24,309 nucleotides of DNA from Flavobacteriales bacterium (lineage in GTDB: Bacteria > Bacteroidota > Bacteroidia > Flavobacteriales_D > Crocinitomicaceae), in contig CANMFV010000001.1 of NCBI GenBank assembly GCA_947496835.1, positions 1 to 24,309 on the forward strand. Direction: 5' to 3'. Positions 16,493 to 24,309 of the stretch are shown in pieces. The position numbers and the translations under genes are program-made. Numbering within the stretch: position 1 is the first letter of the stretch; every line of letters begins with the position of its first letter. Under the pieces are notes generated by a model. That model was given only the letters and a program-made list of their open reading frames with translations, searched no databases and was not told the origin of the DNA.

Positions 16493-19400
16493 ATGAAAAT
16501 TGTTACAACTTTAAAGGGAGTACTCCGTCTTGGAATTTTCGCTCTCTCGTTATTTGTTTCGAATAGCATTTTCGCACAAACGACAATCATTAATCCCACA
16601 GGGGATGGTGGCTTCGATAATGGACCTTCATTTTTATCAAATGGCTGGACTGTGGTGAATGATGCAAATTCAGCTAATAACAATTGGTATGTTGGAAATG
16701 TACCCGGTGCATTTGCAGGATCTAATGCTGCATACATTTCAAACACCAGCGGAACTACTTGGGCATATTCTCCCACAACTGTTTCTACTACTCACTTTTA
16801 CCGAGACGTAACGGTTCCGTTAAATGAAAATGTTATCTCACTTAACTTTCAATGGAAAGGGAGCGGTGAATCTGGATGGGATAGATTATTAATCTATGCT
16901 GCTCCAGTTACTACAAATCCGTTTTCTGGTTTTCCAGCATCTAATGCGAGTGTATACCCTGGAGCAACTTTATTGTATACTCAGGCAAATAATGCGCAAG
17001 CAACGTATACGAATGCTGCAGTTACGATTCCTTCCTCTTTTGCAGGAACAACTTTCCGTTTAATTTTCACTTGGCAAAATGATGCTTCTTTTGGAACATC
17101 ACCAGGGGTGGCAATTGATAACGTTAGTTTAACTTCTGCAGCTCCGGCGCTATTTACGTCGTCAGCAATTGGTGGACAATGGTCTTCGCCTGCAACATGG
17201 GCTGGAGGAGTTGTACCAGCAGGGGGTAATTTAATTACGATTGCAGCAGGTTCTGTTGTCACAATTGATCAGGCTGTTGCATATGCTGAATTAAATGTGA
17301 ACGGAACTTTACAATGGGGTGCAACATCATTCCCGGTAACTATTGGTGGAAACATTACCATTAATTCAGGTGGAAAATATTTGGCGTATACTTCTGCCGT
17401 TGGCGGAGCAACTGGAACACCAACCGCGCTTGGTGGAAATTTCATTAACAATGGATATGCCAACTTTGCTGTTGGAACAACAACAGGCGCCTCTATAACG
17501 TTCAATGGAGCGGGGTCTATCTTAGGTGGGTCTGGAGTTTTTGAAGGAGATGGTACGAGAGGAATTATTCGTGGCATCGTTTTTTCTAATATTGGAGCAA
17601 ACTCGATCACAACAACGCAACCTTTGACTACCTTTAGCTTCGTTCATACCGCAGGTTCATTAAACACGAATGGAAAATTAAGAATTGACAACACGGCGTT
17701 AATTCATGGATTACCAATAAATACAAGAGTCGAAAGCGTACATATGACTAACATGGGAGCTAATTATAATGTTGCTCCTGTTGTTTTCGGAAGTGCTGTA
17801 ACACCTTATTCAAATGGTGCTGCCGCAACAATTGGCACAAGATACTTTAATGGAAACAATGTTTTTTTGTGTACGGCGAACGGAACATTTAATGCCAATC
17901 CACCCACTTCCACTGCTCCTACTGAATTTACAACGAGCGGTCCTTCATTAATTTGGATTGGAACATTAGGAACCATCGGAACAAATCTTCCTTACAATCA
18001 AGTACTCAGTACTGCAACGCCATATTTCTATGGAGCGAATTTATACCAAGCCTTAACTTCTACTGCTCAAACAGTGATGCCAACGCATACTTCAGGTGTT
18101 GCAGGTAATTTCCTTTATTTAGGATTGGCAGCGAAAGTTGCTGTGAATTATGATGCTGCAACACAAACAGTACGTAGCCTTTCAATCACCAACAACGGAA
18201 CAGGATATAATAGTTCAACTGCACCCAACCTTACCTTTAGTAATGGTGTTGGCGGAACAGGTACTGGAGCAGCAGCAGTTCCAGTTATTTTATACGTATT
18301 AAATGGCGGTGGCAACAGTGCTACTCAAAAATCTGGAATTGCAACTATCACAGGAGGATTGAATATTAATAGCGACTCTGGAGCAAGCTCGCTCAGCTCA
18401 GACCCTCAAGCCTCTGCTGGGGTAAGCTCTGTCTTCGCAACGAATGGTGGATTCAACTATACAGTTGTACCATTGGTTGGGTTTACGGGTCCAACAGCAT
18501 TAAACCTTGTTACGAATGTTGGTTCTGGTTACACAGCAGCTCCAACTGTTGTGGTTACCGGAGGAACATTGGTTTCTGGTGCGGCATTAACAACTGCTAA
18601 CTTTACGGTTACAGTCAATCAAGGAAAAGTAGTGTCCGTTTATTTGAACGCGAACACTTCAGTATATTCCATCCCACCAACACTTTCCTTATCTGCAGGA
18701 AATGCAACGCTTGCCTTTCCGGCTGGATGTTGGCCAACAGCGACTGCCAATATCGGTGCTAACAGACAATTATTAAGTTTTAACGTTACGAATAGTGGAT
18801 TTGGATACGTCGCTGCTCCTACTGTAGCGGTTGGAGCAACTTCAGGTTCAGCAGCTGGTGGAACATTTACTGCGCAAGCAACAGGTCTTTCCGCACGCTG
18901 TGGGTTGTACCTACTTGTGTTAAATTATTTTGCTCCAGCGACATCTGCTGTTGCGAATGCAGATGATGCAGCCATTCCTACAAACCGTAAATTAGTGCAA
19001 TTGCAACTTGCAGGTAACGGAAATGGATTAAACTTAAATTCTGACCTTATATTGTTTGGTTCTTTACCATTTACTTTGGCGGCTAGTGGAAATGTCCCTG
19101 GAAATGTCCTCGATTTAGGAGGCAATAACTTAATTTGTACATGGCAAGGGTATGCTGGTGCCTTCAGTACGTTCGGCGCAACCAACGCTTACTTTAAAAA
19201 TGGTGCGATGACTGTCTATGGAAGAGGTGGCGGAACAACAGGAAGCACCTATAATTTCCCATTCAGCGGAACGTTCTCTTGTAATACAGGAGCAGGAACA
19301 GCAATTACCGGAGGTTCTGACATCACTAGAGTGACCGTGAGAGAAACGGCAGCTCCAACCAATACTACGCAAGGGGGTACTGCAGCTGCAGTTGGAAATC

Positions 19401-22400
19401 GTGCATTCAGAGTTCAAACTCAATCCACGTTGAATCCAATAGGGACTTCAGGTACAAATCCAACGGTTACCTTACGTTATAATTCTCAAGACAACTTAAG
19501 CTCTACACAAGACCAGACTTTTGTGGCGGAGGGAACGACTTTGTCCGGACAATGGAACATAAAAAGTGCCGCTATTGGTGCTGGAGGAAATTTAGCAGCT
19601 ACTGGATTATTAGCTAGTGCAACAGTTGCTCCTGGACCAATTGCTTTAACGGGTGATGTATTTTACGCTTGGGCTGGTTTAGCACCAACAATTACGAGCG
19701 TTGCGCCTTTAATCGTTTGTGCAAGTTCAGGTAGTTTCACCATTACGGGAACAAACTTATTAGGAGTTTCTGCGGTAAATATAGGCGGAACACCAGTTTC
19801 TTCATTTACGGTGGTTTCTTCCACTCAGATTGATGCATTTGCTGGACCTGGTACAACAGGGGTGGTCTCTATTGTGAAAAATGGAACAACGTATGCTGGA
19901 ACTCAAACGATTTCAGTAACTCCATCACCGTCAGCGCCAAGTGCGACACCTGCAACGGCAACCGTTTCTTTCGGATCAACAACTACATTTATTGCGTCTT
20001 CGAGCACAGCGGGAACATACAATTGGTATTTATTTCCAAATGGAGGCACGACACTTTCAACAGGAGCATCGTTTATTACACCTCCAGCATGTTCGAACAC
20101 CACTTATTATGTTGGAGAAAGTAATGGATCATGTGAAGGGGCTCGTACGGCTGTCACAGTGAATACGACTCCAATTACAGCTTCATCTTCTATCACTAGT
20201 TTTTGTGGAACGGGCGGAAATACTACTTTAAGTGTATCTCCTGTTGACCCGAGTGTTACTTATACATGGACATCCAACACAGCGACCGCATTAATACCTA
20301 TAAATGTTGGTTCAACGGTTACGGCTACCTTATCTGAAACATCTGAAATTTATTTAACAAGCACCTTAAATGGATGTACTGCATCAAATGCGTTTTCGGT
20401 TGGCGTTTATCCTTTGCCAACGGCAACGGTGACAACTTCCGCTTCTGGTGTTTGTCCAGGAACTTCCGCAACGATTAATTCAGGTTTAAGTTCTAGTAAC
20501 TTCGCTGTTAGTACTATTCCATACGTACCTTATACGATTCCTGCGAATGCAACAACTATTTGCAGTAATGGTGTTCCTACTGTGCCTTTGTCAGGAGGAA
20601 ACTTAGATGATGGTGGATGGGGAAATATCCCAATTGGATTTACCTTTAATTTCTTCGGAACTAACTTTACTTCGTTAGCAGCTGGTACAAATGGACTTTT
20701 GATGTTCGGAGCTGTGCCAGGTTACGGTACTGCTGCTGGACAACTAGGTCAGTTTGCTTTTAACGGTGGACCAGTTTCAGGAGCATACCAGTATTTCCCG
20801 AATCCAGCGAATCCTGGAAATGTGATTTCCCTAATGGCCGGGGATCAATATTTTGGAGGTGGTACTGCTGGTTCAGCCTCAAGCGACCTTATTTACTGGA
20901 CGAGTGGTTTTGCACCAAACCGTGTATTCAACATCCTATACCAAGATGTGAATCGTTGTTGTGGCGCAGCGAATCCAACCTTTAGTGCATACGCTCGATT
21001 ATTCGAAACGATCGGAACTGTTGAAGTTCATATTTTAAATAATAACCAAAGCACCTTCGCTAACGTAGTAGGCTTACAAGATATCACAAAAACAATTGGC
21101 GCGGTTGCTCCAGGCAGACCAACACAAAATCAAGTGACGGGAGTTGCAACACCATGGGGTGTTTCAACACCAGAAGCATGGCGCTTTGTTCCGCCTTCCA
21201 ATTACACAACTGTTTGGACAGCTACAAACTCGGCAGCGACAACTACGATTGCAACTGGAACAAACATCTTCTCTCAAGCGGTTTCTCCATTAGAGACAAC
21301 AACGTATGACATTTCGTATACAAATCAAACAACAGGATGTACGAATGCGGTTGGTTCTGCAAATGTGCAAATGGTGATCTTTAGTAATGTTGCGCCAGTA
21401 GGTGTGAATACAATTGCGCCTCCGGGAGTTTGTACAGGAAGTAATTTCTCCTTAGCGACTGACTATACAGGTTCATTAAATGGTTTATCTTTTCAATGGC
21501 AAGTATCGTTAGACGGTGGTGTTACGTACAATGACATCGTTGGCGCGACTGCTACAACGTATAATACATTGATGAACGCTACGGGAACATATCGTTTACG
21601 CATGATTGCTTGTAATGGCACACCATCTTATTCAAGCGCGGCAACCGTTGTAAACAATGCGTTACCATCAATTAGTGTGACTCCTACTTCTGCTCCTTTC
21701 TGTCAACCAGGCGGAACAGCGGTAACGATGACAGCATCTGGAACGTCAACATCTTATGCTTGGTCTCCAGCAGCTGGATTAACAGCGACTACTGGTTCAA
21801 GTGTTGATGCGAGTCCAACTGCAACAACGACCTATACCGTGACAGGAACCGATGGAAATGGCTGTTCATCTTCAACAACTGCCGTAATAAATCTGGCTTC
21901 TTCCGTAACGATGAATAGCACTTTAGCGAGTCCTGCTGCAATTTGTATTAATCAAAATGCAACTTTAACAGCGTTGGCAACTGCGGCTGCGGGAACATAC
22001 TGTCAACCAGTAACCTCATGTACTTTCCCTGATATGATTACAAATGTATCATTTGGAACAATCAATAACACAACTTTATGTGACGGTGGAGCAACCGGTG
22101 GATTTACCTATTTCTCTTCGTTTAACCCAACGATTGCAGCTGGTTCAACACTTCCTCTTTCTGTTTCAACAGGTGGAGACATTGAAGGTGCTGCAGTTTG
22201 GATCGACTTCAACAAGAACGGAATATATGAGGCGAGTGAATTGGTATTGAATGGTCTTGCAGGAACAAATCCAGCAACATATACAGGAACTATTTTCATT
22301 CCACTTAGCGCAACCAATGGAACGACAAGAATGCGCGTAAGATGTGCATATAACGCCAATCCATCTGCGACGAACATAGGCCCATGCACAAACATTACCT

Positions 22401-24309
22401 TCGGCGAAACAGAGGATTATTTAATTACCATTACCGGCGGTGTTGACCCATTAACGTATACATGGACTCCAAATACGAATTTGAATAATACCATCGGTTC
22501 TTCGGTTATCGTGAGTAATGCCATAGCTACAACTACATACAACGTAGTTGCAACAAGTGCACAAGGATGTGCGGCAACTGGAACAGCAACATTAGTGGTA
22601 AATCCGCTTCCTCAAATTGGAGCTGGGAATGACGTTCTGATTTGTACGAATAGTGGATCTCAAGTCTTTACCCCATCAGGAACAGGTGCAGGTGTAGGAG
22701 GTTCTTATACTTGGAATAACGGTGCGATTAATGCGCAACCTTACACGGTAACTCAAACTGCTACCTTTATAGTAACAGGAGTGGATGCCAATTCATGTGT
22801 CAACTATGATACCTTGCAAGTAGTGTTTTCACCAGTTCCACCGGCAAATGCAGGAGTTGACCAACAAATTTGTATTGGTCAAACCGCAACCTTGCCTGCA
22901 ACAGGTTTAGCACCATTCACTTGGACTACGACAGCTTACCCTGGAAGTGGAATCTCTGCGCCAGTGGTGAATCCTCTATTGGAAGTGACACCAACGACAC
23001 CTGGAGTATATACGTATACAGTAGGAGTTATCAATGGAGTAGGTTGTACGAATGAAGATCAAGTTCAATTGACAGTCTGGGCACTCCCTAACATTAACGC
23101 AGGTGTTGATCAAACAATCTGTAATGCTTCACCATCGATTCTTGCTGGTTCTGGAGGATTAACATACACTTGGACAAACAGCGTCACAAACGCAACTCCG
23201 TTCTTCCCGTCTTCGACTGCAACTTACACAGTTGACGGTGTGGATATCAACGGATGTCACAATGTTGACCAAGTTGTTGTGACGGTATTGCCTCAGCCAA
23301 TCGTAAATGCGGGTATAGATCAATCTGTTTGTGCGACGACTCCAGTTATTTTAATGGCTCAAACAACAGCAAATACACCAACAGCGGTTACTGGTTTCCA
23401 ATGGAATAACAGCATTGTCAATGGTTCACAGTTTACACCGAATGCTACAGCTACGTACACAGTAACAGCAACAGGTGCAAATGGATGTACAAACCAAGAT
23501 CAAGTGGTTGTGACGGTATTGGCATTGCCAACAGTAAATGCTGGAAACGACATCTCCGTTTGTGCTGGATTAAGTGCAACGTTGAACGCAACAGGTGCAG
23601 CATCTTATTCTTGGAATAACGGTGTGACACAGGCAATACCTTTCTATCCGAACGCAACGACTACCTACACTGTAGTTGGAACAGGCGCTAACGGATGTAC
23701 AAACCAAGATCAAGTCGTTGTGAATGTTGGTACTGGACCAAATGTTAGTGTTTCAGGTAATCAAGTTGTTTGTTCGAATGCATCGGCAACGTTAAGCGCC
23801 GCTGCTATCAACAGCATGGGTGGTTACTGGACAACAACAAATGGCACCGGGACAATTTCTCCGAACATTTCGAATGGTACTGTAACTTATACTCCATCTT
23901 CAAATGATCCAGTTGTAGTTAATTTGACATACGTAGCTTCTAATGCTTGTGGAAACGCATCTCAGTCTACAACCGTAACTGTATTGCCAATCCCAACTGT
24001 GAACGCAGGTTTAGACCTTTCAGTATGTTCAGGTTTACCTGTAACATTGTCAGCAACAAGTAATGGATTCATTACATGGAACAACAACGTTTCAAACAAC
24101 GTAGCGTTTGTACCAGGTTCATCTGCAACGTACACAGTAACGGCAGTAGGAGCGAACAACTGTACAAACTCCGATCAAATGGTCTTGACAGTATTGGCTT
24201 TACCAGATGTAAATGCTGGTGCTGACCAAACAATCTGTTCAGGTTCAACTGCAACCTTGAATGGTTCAGGTGCAAATACATACTTATGGAACAATGGTGT
24301 TGTGAACAG
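16493..24309 (+). CDS. Giant secreted multidomain surface protein/adhesin (at least 2605 aa, 3' end truncated), probable T9SS cargo
   Basis: Manual translation is open in one frame from ATG 16493 to the window end, and the track lists no closed ORF in this frame. Signal peptide MKIVTTLKGVLRLGIFALSLFVSNSIFA/Q. Domains in order: MAM/cleaved-adhesin-like beta-sandwich (about 16577-17140); G8/beta-helix-like region starting GGQWSSPATWAGGVVP; TNxGxGY repeats; IPT/TIG (19682-19921); CHU_C-associated Ig-like (19922-20165); NIDO-like (about 20600-21195); GEVED (21998-22432: VWIDFNKNG, TRMRVR, GETEDY); tandem Ig-like repeats. The T9SS C-terminal signal is not in the window. Confidence 0.93.
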   Translation, partial: MKIVTTLKGVLRLGIFALSLFVSNSIFAQTTIINPTGDGGFDNGPSFLSNGWTVVNDANSANNNWYVGNVPGAFAGSNAAYISNTSGTTWAYSPTTVSTTHFYRDVTVPLNENVISLNFQWKGSGESGWDRLLIYAAPVTTNPFSGFPASNASVYPGATLLYTQANNAQATYTNAAVTIPSSFAGTTFRLIFTWQNDASFGTSPGVAIDNVSLTSAAPALFTSSAIGGQWSSPATWAGGVVPAGGNLITIAAGSVVTIDQAVAYAELNVNGTLQWGATSFPVTIGGNITINSGGKYLAYTSAVGGATGTPTALGGNFINNGYANFAVGTTTGASITFNGAGSILGGSGVFEGDGTRGIIRGIVFSNIGANSITTTQPLTTFSFVHTAGSLNTNGKLRIDNTALIHGLPINTRVESVHMTNMGANYNVAPVVFGSAVTPYSNGAAATIGTRYFNGNNVFLCTANGTFNANPPTSTAPTEFTTSGPSLIWIGTLGTIGTNLPYNQVLSTATPYFYGANLYQALTSTAQTVMPTHTSGVAGNFLYLGLAAKVAVNYDAATQTVRSLSITNNGTGYNSSTAPNLTFSNGVGGTGTGAAAVPVILYVLNGGGNSATQKSGIATITGGLNINSDSGASSLSSDPQASAGVSSVFATNGGFNYTVVPLVGFTGPTALNLVTNVGSGYTAAPTVVVTGGTLVSGAALTTANFTVTVNQGKVVSVYLNANTSVYSIPPTLSLSAGNATLAFPAGCWPTATANIGANRQLLSFNVTNSGFGYVAAPTVAVGATSGSAAGGTFTAQATGLSARCGLYLLVLNYFAPATSAVANADDAAIPTNRKLVQLQLAGNGNGLNLNSDLILFGSLPFTLAASGNVPGNVLDLGGNNLICTWQGYAGAFSTFGATNAYFKNGAMTVYGRGGGTTGSTYNFPFSGTFSCNTGAGTAITGGSDITRVTVRETAAPTNTTQGGTAAAVGNRAFRVQTQSTLNPIGTSGTNPTVTLRYNSQDNLSSTQDQTFVAEGTTLSGQWNIKSAAIGAGGNLAATGLLASATVAPGPIALTGDVFYAWAGLAPTITSVAPLIVCASSGSFTITGTNLLGVSAVNIGGTPVSSFTVVSSTQIDAFAGPGTTGVVSIVKNGTTYAGTQTISVTPSPSAPSATPATATVSFGSTTTFIASSSTAGTYNWYLFPNGGTTLSTGASFITPPACSNTTYYVGESNGSCEGARTAVTVNTTPITASSSITSFCGTGGNTTLSVSPVDPSVTYTWTSNTATALIPINVGSTVTATLSETSEIYLTSTLNGCTASNAFSVGVYPLPTATVTTSASGVCPGTSATINSGLSSSNFAVSTIPYVPYTIPANATTICSNGVPTVPLSGGNLDDGGWGNIPIGFTFNFFGTNFTSLAAGTNGLLMFGAVPGYGTAAGQLGQFAFNGGPVSGAYQYFPNPANPGNVISLMAGDQYFGGGTAGSASSDLIYWTSGFAPNRVFNILYQDVNRCCGAANPTFSAYARLFETIGTVEVHILNNNQSTFANVVGLQDITKTIGAVAPGRPTQNQVTGVATPWGVSTPEAWRFVPPSNYTTVWTATNSAATTTIATGTNIFSQAVSPLETTTYDISYTNQTTGCTNAVGSANVQMVIFSNVAPVGVNTIAPPGVCTGSNFSLATDYTGSLNGLSFQWQVSLDGGVTYNDIVGATATTYNTLMNATGTYRLRMIACNGTPSYSSAATVVNNALPSISVTPTSAPFCQPGGTAVTMTASGTSTSYAWSPAAGLTATTGSSVDASPTATTTYTVTGTDGNGCSSSTTAVINLASSVTMNSTLASPAAICINQNATLTALATAAAGTYCQPVTSCTFPDMITNVSFGTINNTTLCDGGATGGFTYFSSFNPTIAAGSTLPLSVSTGGDIEGAAVWIDFNKNGIYEASELVLNGLAGTNPATYTGTIFIPLSATNGTTRMRVRCAYNANPSATNIGPCTNITFGETEDYLITITGGVDPLTYTWTPNTNLNNTIGSSVIVSNAIATTTYNVVATSAQGCAATGTATLVVNPLPQIGAGNDVLICTNSGSQVFTPSGTGAGVGGSYTWNNGAINAQPYTVTQTATFIVTGVDANSCVNYDTLQVVFSPVPPANAGVDQQICIGQTATLPATGLAPFTWTTTAYPGSGISAPVVNPLLEVTPTTPGVYTYTVGVINGVGCTNEDQVQLTVWALPNINAGVDQTICNASPSILAGSGGLTYTWTNSVTNATPFFPSSTATYTVDGVDINGCHNVDQVVVTVLPQPIVNAGIDQSVCATTPVILMAQTTANTPTAVTGFQWNNSIVNGSQFTPNATATYTVTATGANGCTNQDQVVVTVLALPTVNAGNDISVCAGLSATLNATGAASYSWNNGVTQAIPFYPNATTTYTVVGTGANGCTNQDQVVVNVGTGPNVSVSGNQVVCSNASATLSAAAINSMGGYWTTTNGTGTISPNISNGTVTYTPSSNDPVVVNLTYVASNACGNASQSTTVTVLPIPTVNAGLDLSVCSGLPVTLSATSNGFITWNNNVSNNVAFVPGSSATYTVTAVGANNCTNSDQMVLTVLALPDVNAGADQTICSGSTATLNGSGANTYLWNNGVVN
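17729..18838 (+). repeat. Six degenerate V-x-S-x-x-x-T-N-x-G-x-G-Y-x-x-A-P-x-V peptide repeats inside the giant protein
   Basis: VESVHMTNMGANYNVAPVV (17729), VRSLSITNNGTGYNSSTAPNL (18170), VSSVFATNGGFNYTVVPLV (18422), LVTNVGSGYTAAPTVVV (18506), VVSVYLNANTSVYSIPPTL (18629, weakest), LLSFNVTNSGFGYVAAPTVAV (18770). Confidence 0.8.
22601..24309 (+). repeat. Tandem Ig/PKD-like repeats of 70-85 aa, each with two Cys (at least 8 units, the last truncated)
   Basis: Consensus LPxVNAGxDQxIC...TLxAxGAxxYxWNNxVxN...FxPxxTxTYTVxGxxxNGCxNxDQVxVTV; units start near 22601, 22829, 23078, 23288, 23519, 23729, 23984 and 24194; three units are exactly 210 nt. Confidence 0.9.

Follow-up and report, generated by a model that had tools for sequence, protein, structure and literature searches.

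The window analysed here, 24,309 nucleotides (nt) long, is the whole 24.3-kb contig CANMFV010000001.1 of a Flavobacteriales metagenome-assembled genome (MAG; 59% complete, 1.37 Mb). It encodes a giant secreted surface protein, P0001, whose N-terminal head carries six copies of a small repeat unit. Profile comparisons indicate that these units are homologous to repeats in the virion proteins of T4-like cyano- and pelagimyoviruses (Kyanoviridae). A reading of the DNA made without database searches, hereafter the sequence-only reading, had noted the resemblance to T4-like (cyano)myovirus virion proteins, and PHROG, hhalign, BFVD, ESM Atlas and unit counts in phage genomes now bear it out. That reading went on to propose that a phage module had been domesticated in a bacterial protein, and this the analysis does not support. 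The unit is probably an old, promiscuous surface-display domain common to virions and cell surfaces, which here decorates a probable glycan-binding adhesin head; its exchange would date far back, and which way it went cannot be told.

Repeat units and their phage relatives

The unit comprises about 44 residues in three strands, with the pattern ATAxAxv..G.v.si.vTN.G.GY...P.V.i. The repeat interval, nt 17729-18900, corresponds to residues 413-803 of P0001. Within it a regular expression for the core motif, [TS]NxGx[GN][YF]..P, matches at residues 419, 566, 650, 674 and 766, and a degenerate extra copy, VVSVYLNANTSVYSIPPTLSLS, lies near residues 712-733, between the last two of these matches. 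The six repeats counted in the sequence-only reading are upheld as five clear TNxGxGYxxxP units and one degenerate unit (nt 17729-18847); the string GGTGTGAAA that follows unit 2 (residues ~584-592) is peptide, not DNA. To avoid circularity, a hidden Markov model (HMM) of the unit was built from 22 phage units without the window sequence. Applied to a six-frame translation of the whole window, this phage-only HMM detects five units, all in the same interval (nt 17717-17785, 18161-18241, 18416-18493, 18509-18562 and 18737-18835), with scores of 6.8-21.9 bits. When the first 1100 residues were shuffled 200 times with their composition preserved, the highest score was 4.9 bits. The sixth, degenerate unit is backed by profile-profile alignment to phage unit 3 and by a mixed-unit model, which recovers all six units and finds them, within the genome, only in the P0001 gene. 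The motif residues are invariant over 44 homologues.

Residues 670-786 match PHROG families of phage virion proteins, namely phrog_460, the head closure protein Hc2 or gp14 (E 7e-7), and the virion structural families phrog_4406 (E 7.6e-6) and phrog_701. A scan of IMG/VR confirmed 48 loci with 25-39% identity, which mostly encode gp14 (PF11649) and in some cases baseplate wedge proteins. Most of these IMG/VR proteins are 440-490 residues long and consist of a T4 neck N-terminus (PF11649, phrog_460/679, E 1e-100 and beyond) followed by four units, and their repeat parts also match PHROGs for baseplate wedge, hub, tail fibre and giant virion proteins. The best profile matches are phage virion families (Hc2/gp14, virion structural, baseplate wedge and tail fibre) rather than long-established bacterial domains, and Pfam, NCBIfam and the PDB gave no match to the units.

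The C-terminal module of Kyanoviridae gp14 (PHROG 460; N-terminal part PF11649) parallels units 3-6 closely. Both have four units in the same order, with a short second unit, a third unit of the form Y[ST]xPPT, a strong fourth unit and a trailing strand. An hhalign comparison aligns units 3-6 with phage gp14 units 1-4 over 154 collinear columns (probability 99.0, 34% identity) and takes in both the odd 'YSIPPT' third unit and the strand after the units. The accompanying E-value of 3.2e-18 has to be discounted, as repeats inflate profile scores and it therefore overstates the independence of the match; the collinear order and the unit-specific features are nonetheless not expected by chance. 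We propose that units 3-6 as a whole are homologous to the gp14 module. The settings differ, in that the phage module ends a virion protein of 440-490 residues after the neck domain, whereas in P0001 it forms an excursion from the middle of a beta-helix in a surface protein of more than 2600 residues, from which the gp14 N-terminal domain is absent.

The same 44-residue unit, often in long tandem arrays, is found in giant virion, baseplate wedge and tail fibre proteins (PHROG 701, 4406, 19630, 708, 2885 and 5342), an example being the 6405-residue 'baseplate wedge initiator' of Cyanophage S-RIM50. In contrast to the six split and nested units of P0001, these arrays are in tandem and sit on phage cores (Baseplate_wedge, Phage-Gp8, gp53, Gp5_OB). 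When the unit model was run on complete phage genomes, eight units were found in each of S-SM2 (Synechococcus) and P-SSM2 (Prochlorococcus), two weak ones in the pelagiphage HTVC008M and none in T4; all three Kyanoviridae tested carry units.

Structure-based searches, in which both sides are predictions, also lead to phage proteins. Matches in BFVD are cyanophage structural, neck and baseplate proteins (E 1e-4 to 1e-2, template modelling (TM) scores of 0.27-0.41). Of the ten rows shown for the structure search of the ESM Atlas, eight are 100% viral and two have no recorded taxa; the rows carry DUF4815, Gp18_domIII_N, Phage-Gp8, gp53, Gp5_OB, T4_neck and DUF1565, and the viral clusters align over 84-121 residues with TM scores of 0.43-0.50. 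Two of the three rows shown by the ESM Atlas feature search are likewise 100% viral.

That the likeness reflects chance or convergence in low-complexity beta sequence rich in Gly, Thr and Ala, with no homology behind it, is scarcely credible. The phage-only HMM scores stand clear of every shuffle, the hhalign alignment is collinear throughout at 99% probability, the PHROG matches reach down to 7e-7, and the structure and feature searches of the ESM Atlas, which are independent, arrive at the same viral clusters. What convergence has on its side is the biased composition, the low Foldseek TM scores to BFVD entries and a tblastn search of residues 540-810 against 50,697 phage records, which found none at E<=1e-3. 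The tblastn result is probably due to the low-complexity filter and to divergence, as profile methods find the relation.

Between units 1 and 2 lie two small modules of a different kind. A profile of residues 436-546 (nt 17798-18130) matches residues 494-547 of 7EEA in the PDB, the receptor-binding domain of the tailspike gp17 of cyanopodophage Pam1 (E 5e-6), and it is the first of the two modules that corresponds to the Pam1 segment. P0001 and the Pam1 domain have in common a module of ~55 residues. This receptor-binding domain is described as made up of a beta-helix and a beta-sandwich, and it was proposed to recognise host extracellular polysaccharide (PMC9382816). Pfam returned no family at E<=1 for residues 430-550. 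A CBM5/12 identity for the modules (residues 437-544) was rejected because there is no Pfam match and 7EEA is the only significant PDB match.

The unit belongs to a very large family that lacks a Pfam or NCBIfam model and a name, and for which no solved structure was found. Pfam gave no family at E<=1 over residues 400-830 bar one noise match, and none on the repeat arrays of four other proteins; NCBIfam gave none on the units. Units 3-6 produced no match at E<=10 in a sequence profile search of the PDB, and none at E<=1 in a Foldseek search of the same database. A literature search for the motif strings and for descriptions of cyanophage repeats returned nothing relevant. The Pfam Ig-like, FN3, BACON and PKD domains were rejected as the identity of the unit, no profile matching over the units. 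Nor is a relation to the T4 gp18 sheath domain claimed, the best match by VIA-align (Z 5.3) lying within the noise of the tool.

The beta-helix head and its inserts

An AlphaFold2 model of residues 1-1130, built with 44 homologues, has a mean predicted local distance difference test score (pLDDT) of 84.4 and a predicted TM score (pTM) of 0.78, with most of residues 220-1000 above a pLDDT of 90. On this model, the head scaffold is a parallel, right-handed beta-helix resembling that of pectate lyases. VIA-align, run against 48,161 PDB chains, aligns it with the L. reuteri SRRP (5nxk; Z 11.3, 202 residues aligned within model residues 219-838), the TMEM2 ectodomain (8c6i; Z 10.5, residues 225-826), Cthe_2159 (4phb; Z 9.9) and pectin lyase A (1idj; Z 9.0, 174 residues aligned within 218-626), values that are only modestly over the tool's noise level of about Z 8. 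A Foldseek search with the whole 1130-residue model matched the N-terminal jelly roll only, the helix matches coming from VIA-align. The helix starts near nt 17150-17165 and resumes near nt 18908 according to VIA-align, in keeping with the sequence-only reading, which had placed these points at 17162 and near 18990. The structural alignments cover the C-terminal part only to residue ~908, and its end near residue 1000 is read from the strand pattern.

In its scaffold, the head is like several beta-helix binders and enzymes (5nxk, 8c6i, pectin and pectate lyases, 7EEA; Z 9-11.3), although none of these systems has been seen with TNxGxGY domains. The TMEM2 ectodomain offers a further likeness through its G8 domain. 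The G8 family PF10162 matches residues 235-292 of P0001 under the Pfam threshold (E 0.063, 13.6 bits against a cut-off of 22.9) and is recorded on several homologues in precomputed tables.

Since the alignments take in no more than about 200 of 620 residues and in some cases end at residue 626, the helix is likely broken twice, at residues 413-590 and ~627-805. We propose that the six units pair into three small beta domains that leave the helix as two excursions. Insert 1 would consist of unit 1 in short form, the two ~50-residue tailspike-like modules and unit 2 in full form, and insert 2 of a domain made by units 3 and 6 with a second domain, made by units 4 and 5, nested between them. Judged by sequence and strand pattern, a short unit (strands B-C) precedes a full one (strands A-B-C) in each domain. 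Residues 640-810 modelled alone give a pLDDT of 92.6 and a pTM of 0.86. When this 171-residue model is compared with known structures by VIA-align, Ig-like matches cover its residues 31-102, corresponding to units 4 and 5, while other matches span residues 6-166 with only about 75 residues aligned, corresponding to units 3 and 6. These ranges, with units 4 and 5 inside and units 3 and 6 outside, indirectly favour the Russian-doll nesting of repeats 4-5 suggested in the sequence-only reading.

The units might instead be irregular rungs or loops of one continuous beta-solenoid with nothing nested, and a unit is indeed nearly as long as a pair of solenoid rungs, with short strands at regular spacing. 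We nevertheless judge a continuous solenoid very improbable. Residues 640-810 fold into a compact model on their own, the known beta-helix structures align to only about a third of the residues between 219 and 838, the Ig-like matches map cleanly onto units 4-5, and phage gp14 carries the same module terminally with no helix around it.

Distribution in cells and origin of the unit

A profile of the unit matches 14,042 clusters (50% identity) at E<=1e-3, and 807 at E<=1e-30, in a library of 1.84 billion proteins. Of the 120 best-matching proteins no longer than 2000 residues, about 30 contain a multicopper oxidase domain and only six a phage baseplate Pfam domain; the named sources in this set are Akkermansiaceae, Isosphaeraceae, Chlorohelix, Bacteroidales and an archaeon, on contigs of up to 6.2 Mb. 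Both kinds of carrier are confirmed by name, the phage kind by the protein of Cyanophage S-RIM50 and the cellular kind by a 5247-residue protein of Verrucomicrobiota. Further cellular carriers are found in Verrucomicrobiota, Ramlibacter and Aquiluna. In secreted proteins of Verrucomicrobiota, Planctomycetota, Chloroflexota and archaea, many of them with PF07731, the unit is as close to the head module as in phage proteins, or closer. Unlike P0001, these proteins string together 10-48 units in tandem, combine them with other domains for catalysis or anchoring, and lack the beta-helix head. The richest unit arrays are often fused to the multicopper oxidase domain PF07731 (P0274, P0282, P0296, P0299, P0304 and about 25 more), a recurrent architecture that includes a Chlorohelix protein and an 'uncultured archaeon laccase'.

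The head itself is conserved within Bacteroidota. The region of residues 400-830 has 173 relatives, in giant proteins of 1.7-4.5 thousand residues, and the 120 relatives listed share 51-97% identity over 95-100% of this region. They carry a C-terminal domain of the type IX secretion system (T9SS), of either type A (PF18962) or type B (PF13585), together with varied stalks. That heads occur on different stalks and with either C-terminal type indicates shuffling of a cassette. A GTDB scan located 71 head loci in Crocinitomicaceae, Cryomorphaceae, Flavobacterium, Chitinophagaceae/Ferruginibacter and Sphingobacteriales. The head and its inserts would accordingly be a cassette that has long been conserved in Flavobacteriales, Chitinophagales and Sphingobacteriales. 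The N-terminal part of the helix alone has distant relatives in 12 other Bacteroidota genomes (residues ~208-401, 30-41% identity), which lack the repeats. Insert-free orthologues were sought among these relatives, but their alignments leave out the helix's C-terminal half, so these relatives do not date the insertion.

The head family is multi-copy in some genomes, with two copies about 11 kb apart in a Ferruginibacter MAG (JASGIL010000001.1, 4117916-4133698; L105 and L127) and three in G087. Several head-bearing contigs (L066, L074, L094, L102, L113 and L121) are titled as MAGs of Chryseobacterium gleum, Rhizobium sp. Q54, Asaia bogorensis or Bifidobacterium breve. The titles outside Bacteroidota (Rhizobium, Asaia and Bifidobacterium) are probably mislabelled, and the Chryseobacterium gleum species titles look doubtful.

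Domestication would mean that a Bacteroidota ancestor took the four-unit module from an aquatic myovirus of the T4-like kind, possibly along with the tailspike-like modules, and fixed the captured parts in its adhesin head as a receptor-binding device. The collinearity of units 3-6 with the gp14 C-terminal modules, YSIPPT unit and trailing strand included, speaks for such a capture, and in the ESM Atlas and BFVD the closest neighbours are viral. The 7EEA match of the modules between units 1 and 2 (E 5e-6) also favours it, as does the presence of units in 3/3 Kyanoviridae genomes against 2-7% of sampled bacterial genomes. Identity to the phage modules, at 25-39%, is however no better than to cellular arrays: an HMM of the head module finds its best matches outside the family in Akkermansiaceae (46.8 bits) and P0132 (46.5 bits), ahead of the best viral neck protein (38.9 bits), after which the two kinds are interleaved. 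Trees built on 110-112 columns of the three-unit module unite the heads in a single long-stemmed clade (100/100), whose sister group differs between runs. A quick tree puts the head clade beside 14 viral neck modules with a Shimodaira-Hasegawa-like approximate likelihood ratio test (SH-aLRT) value of 87, whereas a careful tree, from which five long or compositionally odd rows were excluded (P0249, P0177, P0196, P0213 and P0163), shifts it beside cellular rows with poor support (66/52). Because the sister group changes in this way, no donor can be named. Further, the head clade is conserved across several orders, cellular carriers number in the thousands and span many phyla, no phage genes lie nearby, and there is no step in GC content, that of the repeat interval (0.42-0.45) being the same as in the rest of the gene. 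Taken with the interleaved scores and unstable trees, this breadth and conservation make domestication by a Bacteroidota ancestor rather unlikely. The simple version of such a capture, in particular, is unlikely.

The preferred reading, an old surface-display domain held in common by virions and cell surfaces, probably describes the origin of the units. Their distribution, patchy in cells and regular in Kyanoviridae, fits repeated exchange with no donor named. Several points weigh against parts of this account. Prevalence in bacteria is low, at 6/300 Bacteroidota genomes (one of them a phage contig) and 10/150 genomes in the phylum of the Akkermansiaceae MAG, and given the 3/3 Kyanoviridae a reservoir in phages is conceivable. 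Evidence that the units pair into domains comes from alignment ranges and secondary structure rather than contacts. As for the conserved TN.G.GY..P residues, they look like structural parts of a turn and are uninformative on binding. Finally, the T9SS C-terminal domain lies outside the window, as the contig ends first, and is taken from orthologues.

One contig binned as Bacteroidota, G297:C11 (L055, 374-2598), encodes a T4-like gp14 with four units beside gp15, the tail sheath stabiliser, and a frame of 3977 residues that bears units. The contig belongs to a T4-like phage, having been mis-binned or stemming from an infecting phage, and makes the count of bacterial carriers too high.

Host protein, proposed role and gene neighbourhood

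All of the units lie inside one frame, that of P0001, which is open at the 3' end of the contig (Table 1). The unit-bearing protein is here a chromosomal giant surface protein of the T9SS type, not a virion protein in a phage genome. The N-terminus, MKIVTTLKGVLRLGIFALSLFVSNSIFA/Q, reads by eye as a Sec signal peptide. The orthologue P0002, which is 97% identical and 2794 residues long, ends in a T9SS type A sorting domain (PF18962). As the P0001 frame leaves the contig, its own C-terminal domain is inferred from P0002 and from most homologues, which carry PF18962 or PF13585. Given the Sec signal peptide and the T9SS sorting domain in orthologues, P0001 is most likely a cell-surface protein whose stalk presents the head. 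We propose that it is exported by Sec and then by the T9SS, and that a long stalk, made of Ig-like, GEVED and PKD-like domains, carries the head at its end on the cell surface. According to Pfam, the stalk also contains five Ig_7 (CHU_C-associated) domains. The sole NCBIfam match on the protein overlaps the GEVED stretch and is to the C-terminal part of a Leptospira thermolysin model, far under its cut-off.

Table 1. Features of P0001 and its head, with nucleotide positions in the window
Feature	Position (nt)	Strand	Residues and basis
Giant secreted surface protein	16493..24307	+	2605 residues in the window
Sec signal peptide	16493..16579	+	1-29, ...SIFA/QTT; read by eye from sequence; helix 9-25 in model
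N-terminal jelly roll, MAM / carbohydrate-binding-module type	16580..17143	+	30-217; Foldseek, VIA-align
Right-handed beta-helix, N-terminal part (predicted)	17165..17728	+	225-412; model strands, VIA-align
Unit 1, short form VESVHMTNMGANYNVAPVVFG	17729..17800	+	opens insert 1; regular expression, both unit HMMs
Two small ~50-residue modules (..Y.sGnNVYlCT.aGT....aPT.T..)	17801..18124	+	between units 1 and 2
Unit 2, full form AKVAVNYDAATQTVRSLSITNNGTGYNSSTAPNLTF, then GGTGTGAAA	18125..18262	+	closes insert 1; regular expression, both unit HMMs
Beta-helix rung(s) between inserts, ..GIATITGGLNINSD (predicted)	18263..18370	+	591-626; strands 594-599, 609-613, 618-620
Unit 3, short form GVSSVFATNGGFNYTVVPLVGF	18392..18493	+	putative outer domain of insert 2 with unit 6; HMMs, VIA-align, hhalign
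Unit 4, short form LNLVTNVGSGYTAAPTVVVTGG	18494..18568	+	putative inner domain with unit 5; HMMs, VIA-align, hhalign
Unit 5, degenerate FTVTVNQGKVVSVYLNANTSVYSIPPTLSLS	18581..18712	+	aligns with 'YSIPPT' third unit of phage gp14 modules; mixed-unit model, hhalign
Unit 6, full form WPTATANIGANRQLLSFNVTNSGFGYVAAPTVAVG	18713..18847	+	best match to phage units; regular expression, HMMs, hhalign
Beta-helix, C-terminal part, includes LQLAGNGNGLNLNSDLIL (predicted)	18908..19492	+	806 to about 1000; model, VIA-align
First E-set / IPT-like Ig domain of stalk	19679..19882	+	1063-1130; VIA-align Z 9.8, root-mean-square deviation 1.5
GEVED domain, stalk	22193..22429	+	1901-1979; Pfam

The head would comprise about 1000 residues, made up of the N-terminal jelly roll of MAM/CBM (carbohydrate-binding module) type, the beta-helix and the repeat inserts. 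The jelly roll (residues 30-217), modelled at a lower pLDDT than the rest of the head, matches meprin and neuropilin MAM domains in Foldseek (E 1e-5), and the Eph ligand-binding domain, reelin and CBM4 in VIA-align (Z about 9). With a jelly roll of this type and a helix of the kind found in adhesins, polysaccharide lyases and tailspikes, a polysaccharide is the best guess for the ligand. The repeat domains would project from the helix, adding weak contacts to glycans or cell surfaces, or spacing. As the phage versions sit on exposed parts of the virion (neck, baseplate and fibres), the units are read as accessory surface domains. The same unit also decorates baseplate wedge, hub, fibre and giant virion proteins of Kyanoviridae, and in arrays of 10-48 copies the secreted proteins of many bacterial phyla and some archaea.

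Ig-like decoration domains (Big_2, I-set and FN3) are common to phage virions and bacterial surface proteins. Like the units, they are small, outward-displayed beta domains shuffled between virions and cell surfaces. They constitute a separate family, however, with no Pfam Ig, FN3 or BACON match on the units of P0001. By analogy with such decorations on phage particles, the units are most likely outward-facing accessory domains on a polysaccharide-binding head.

A bolder proposal, which we regard as a long shot, is that the four-unit and tailspike-like modules form a dedicated device for recognising cell surfaces or glycans, one passed around among aquatic cyanophages, both T4-like and podo-type, and adhesins of Bacteroidota associated with blooms. 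If so, the head would bind the same class of phototroph surface polysaccharides as the phages do, and a phage-type apparatus for receptor binding would serve for attachment to cyanobacteria or algae. For this freshwater Flavobacteriales locus, the favoured account remains an old shared module, probably with no recent phage capture. More broadly, the unit family connects the marine myoviruses that are most abundant, through their virion surfaces, to cell-surface proteins of many bacterial phyla and to multicopper oxidase fusions. With a model of the unit, long stretches now called 'hypothetical' in structural proteins of cyanophages and in giant adhesins of bacteria would gain an annotation. 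The head conserved in Bacteroidota, for its part, offers a compact and foldable setting in which to solve the structure of the unit and to seek its ligand.

The genes upstream of P0001 are those of an ordinary Bacteroidota chromosome and include SusC/SusD, an NrtR-like regulator, a major facilitator superfamily (MFS) transporter and DXS. Further neighbours encode a polysaccharide flippase, an enoyl-CoA hydratase, a histidine kinase, a GT4 glycosyltransferase and a short-chain dehydrogenase/reductase (SDR). The neighbours are all of chromosomal Bacteroidota type, which agrees with the remark in the sequence-only reading that the window holds no other phage gene.

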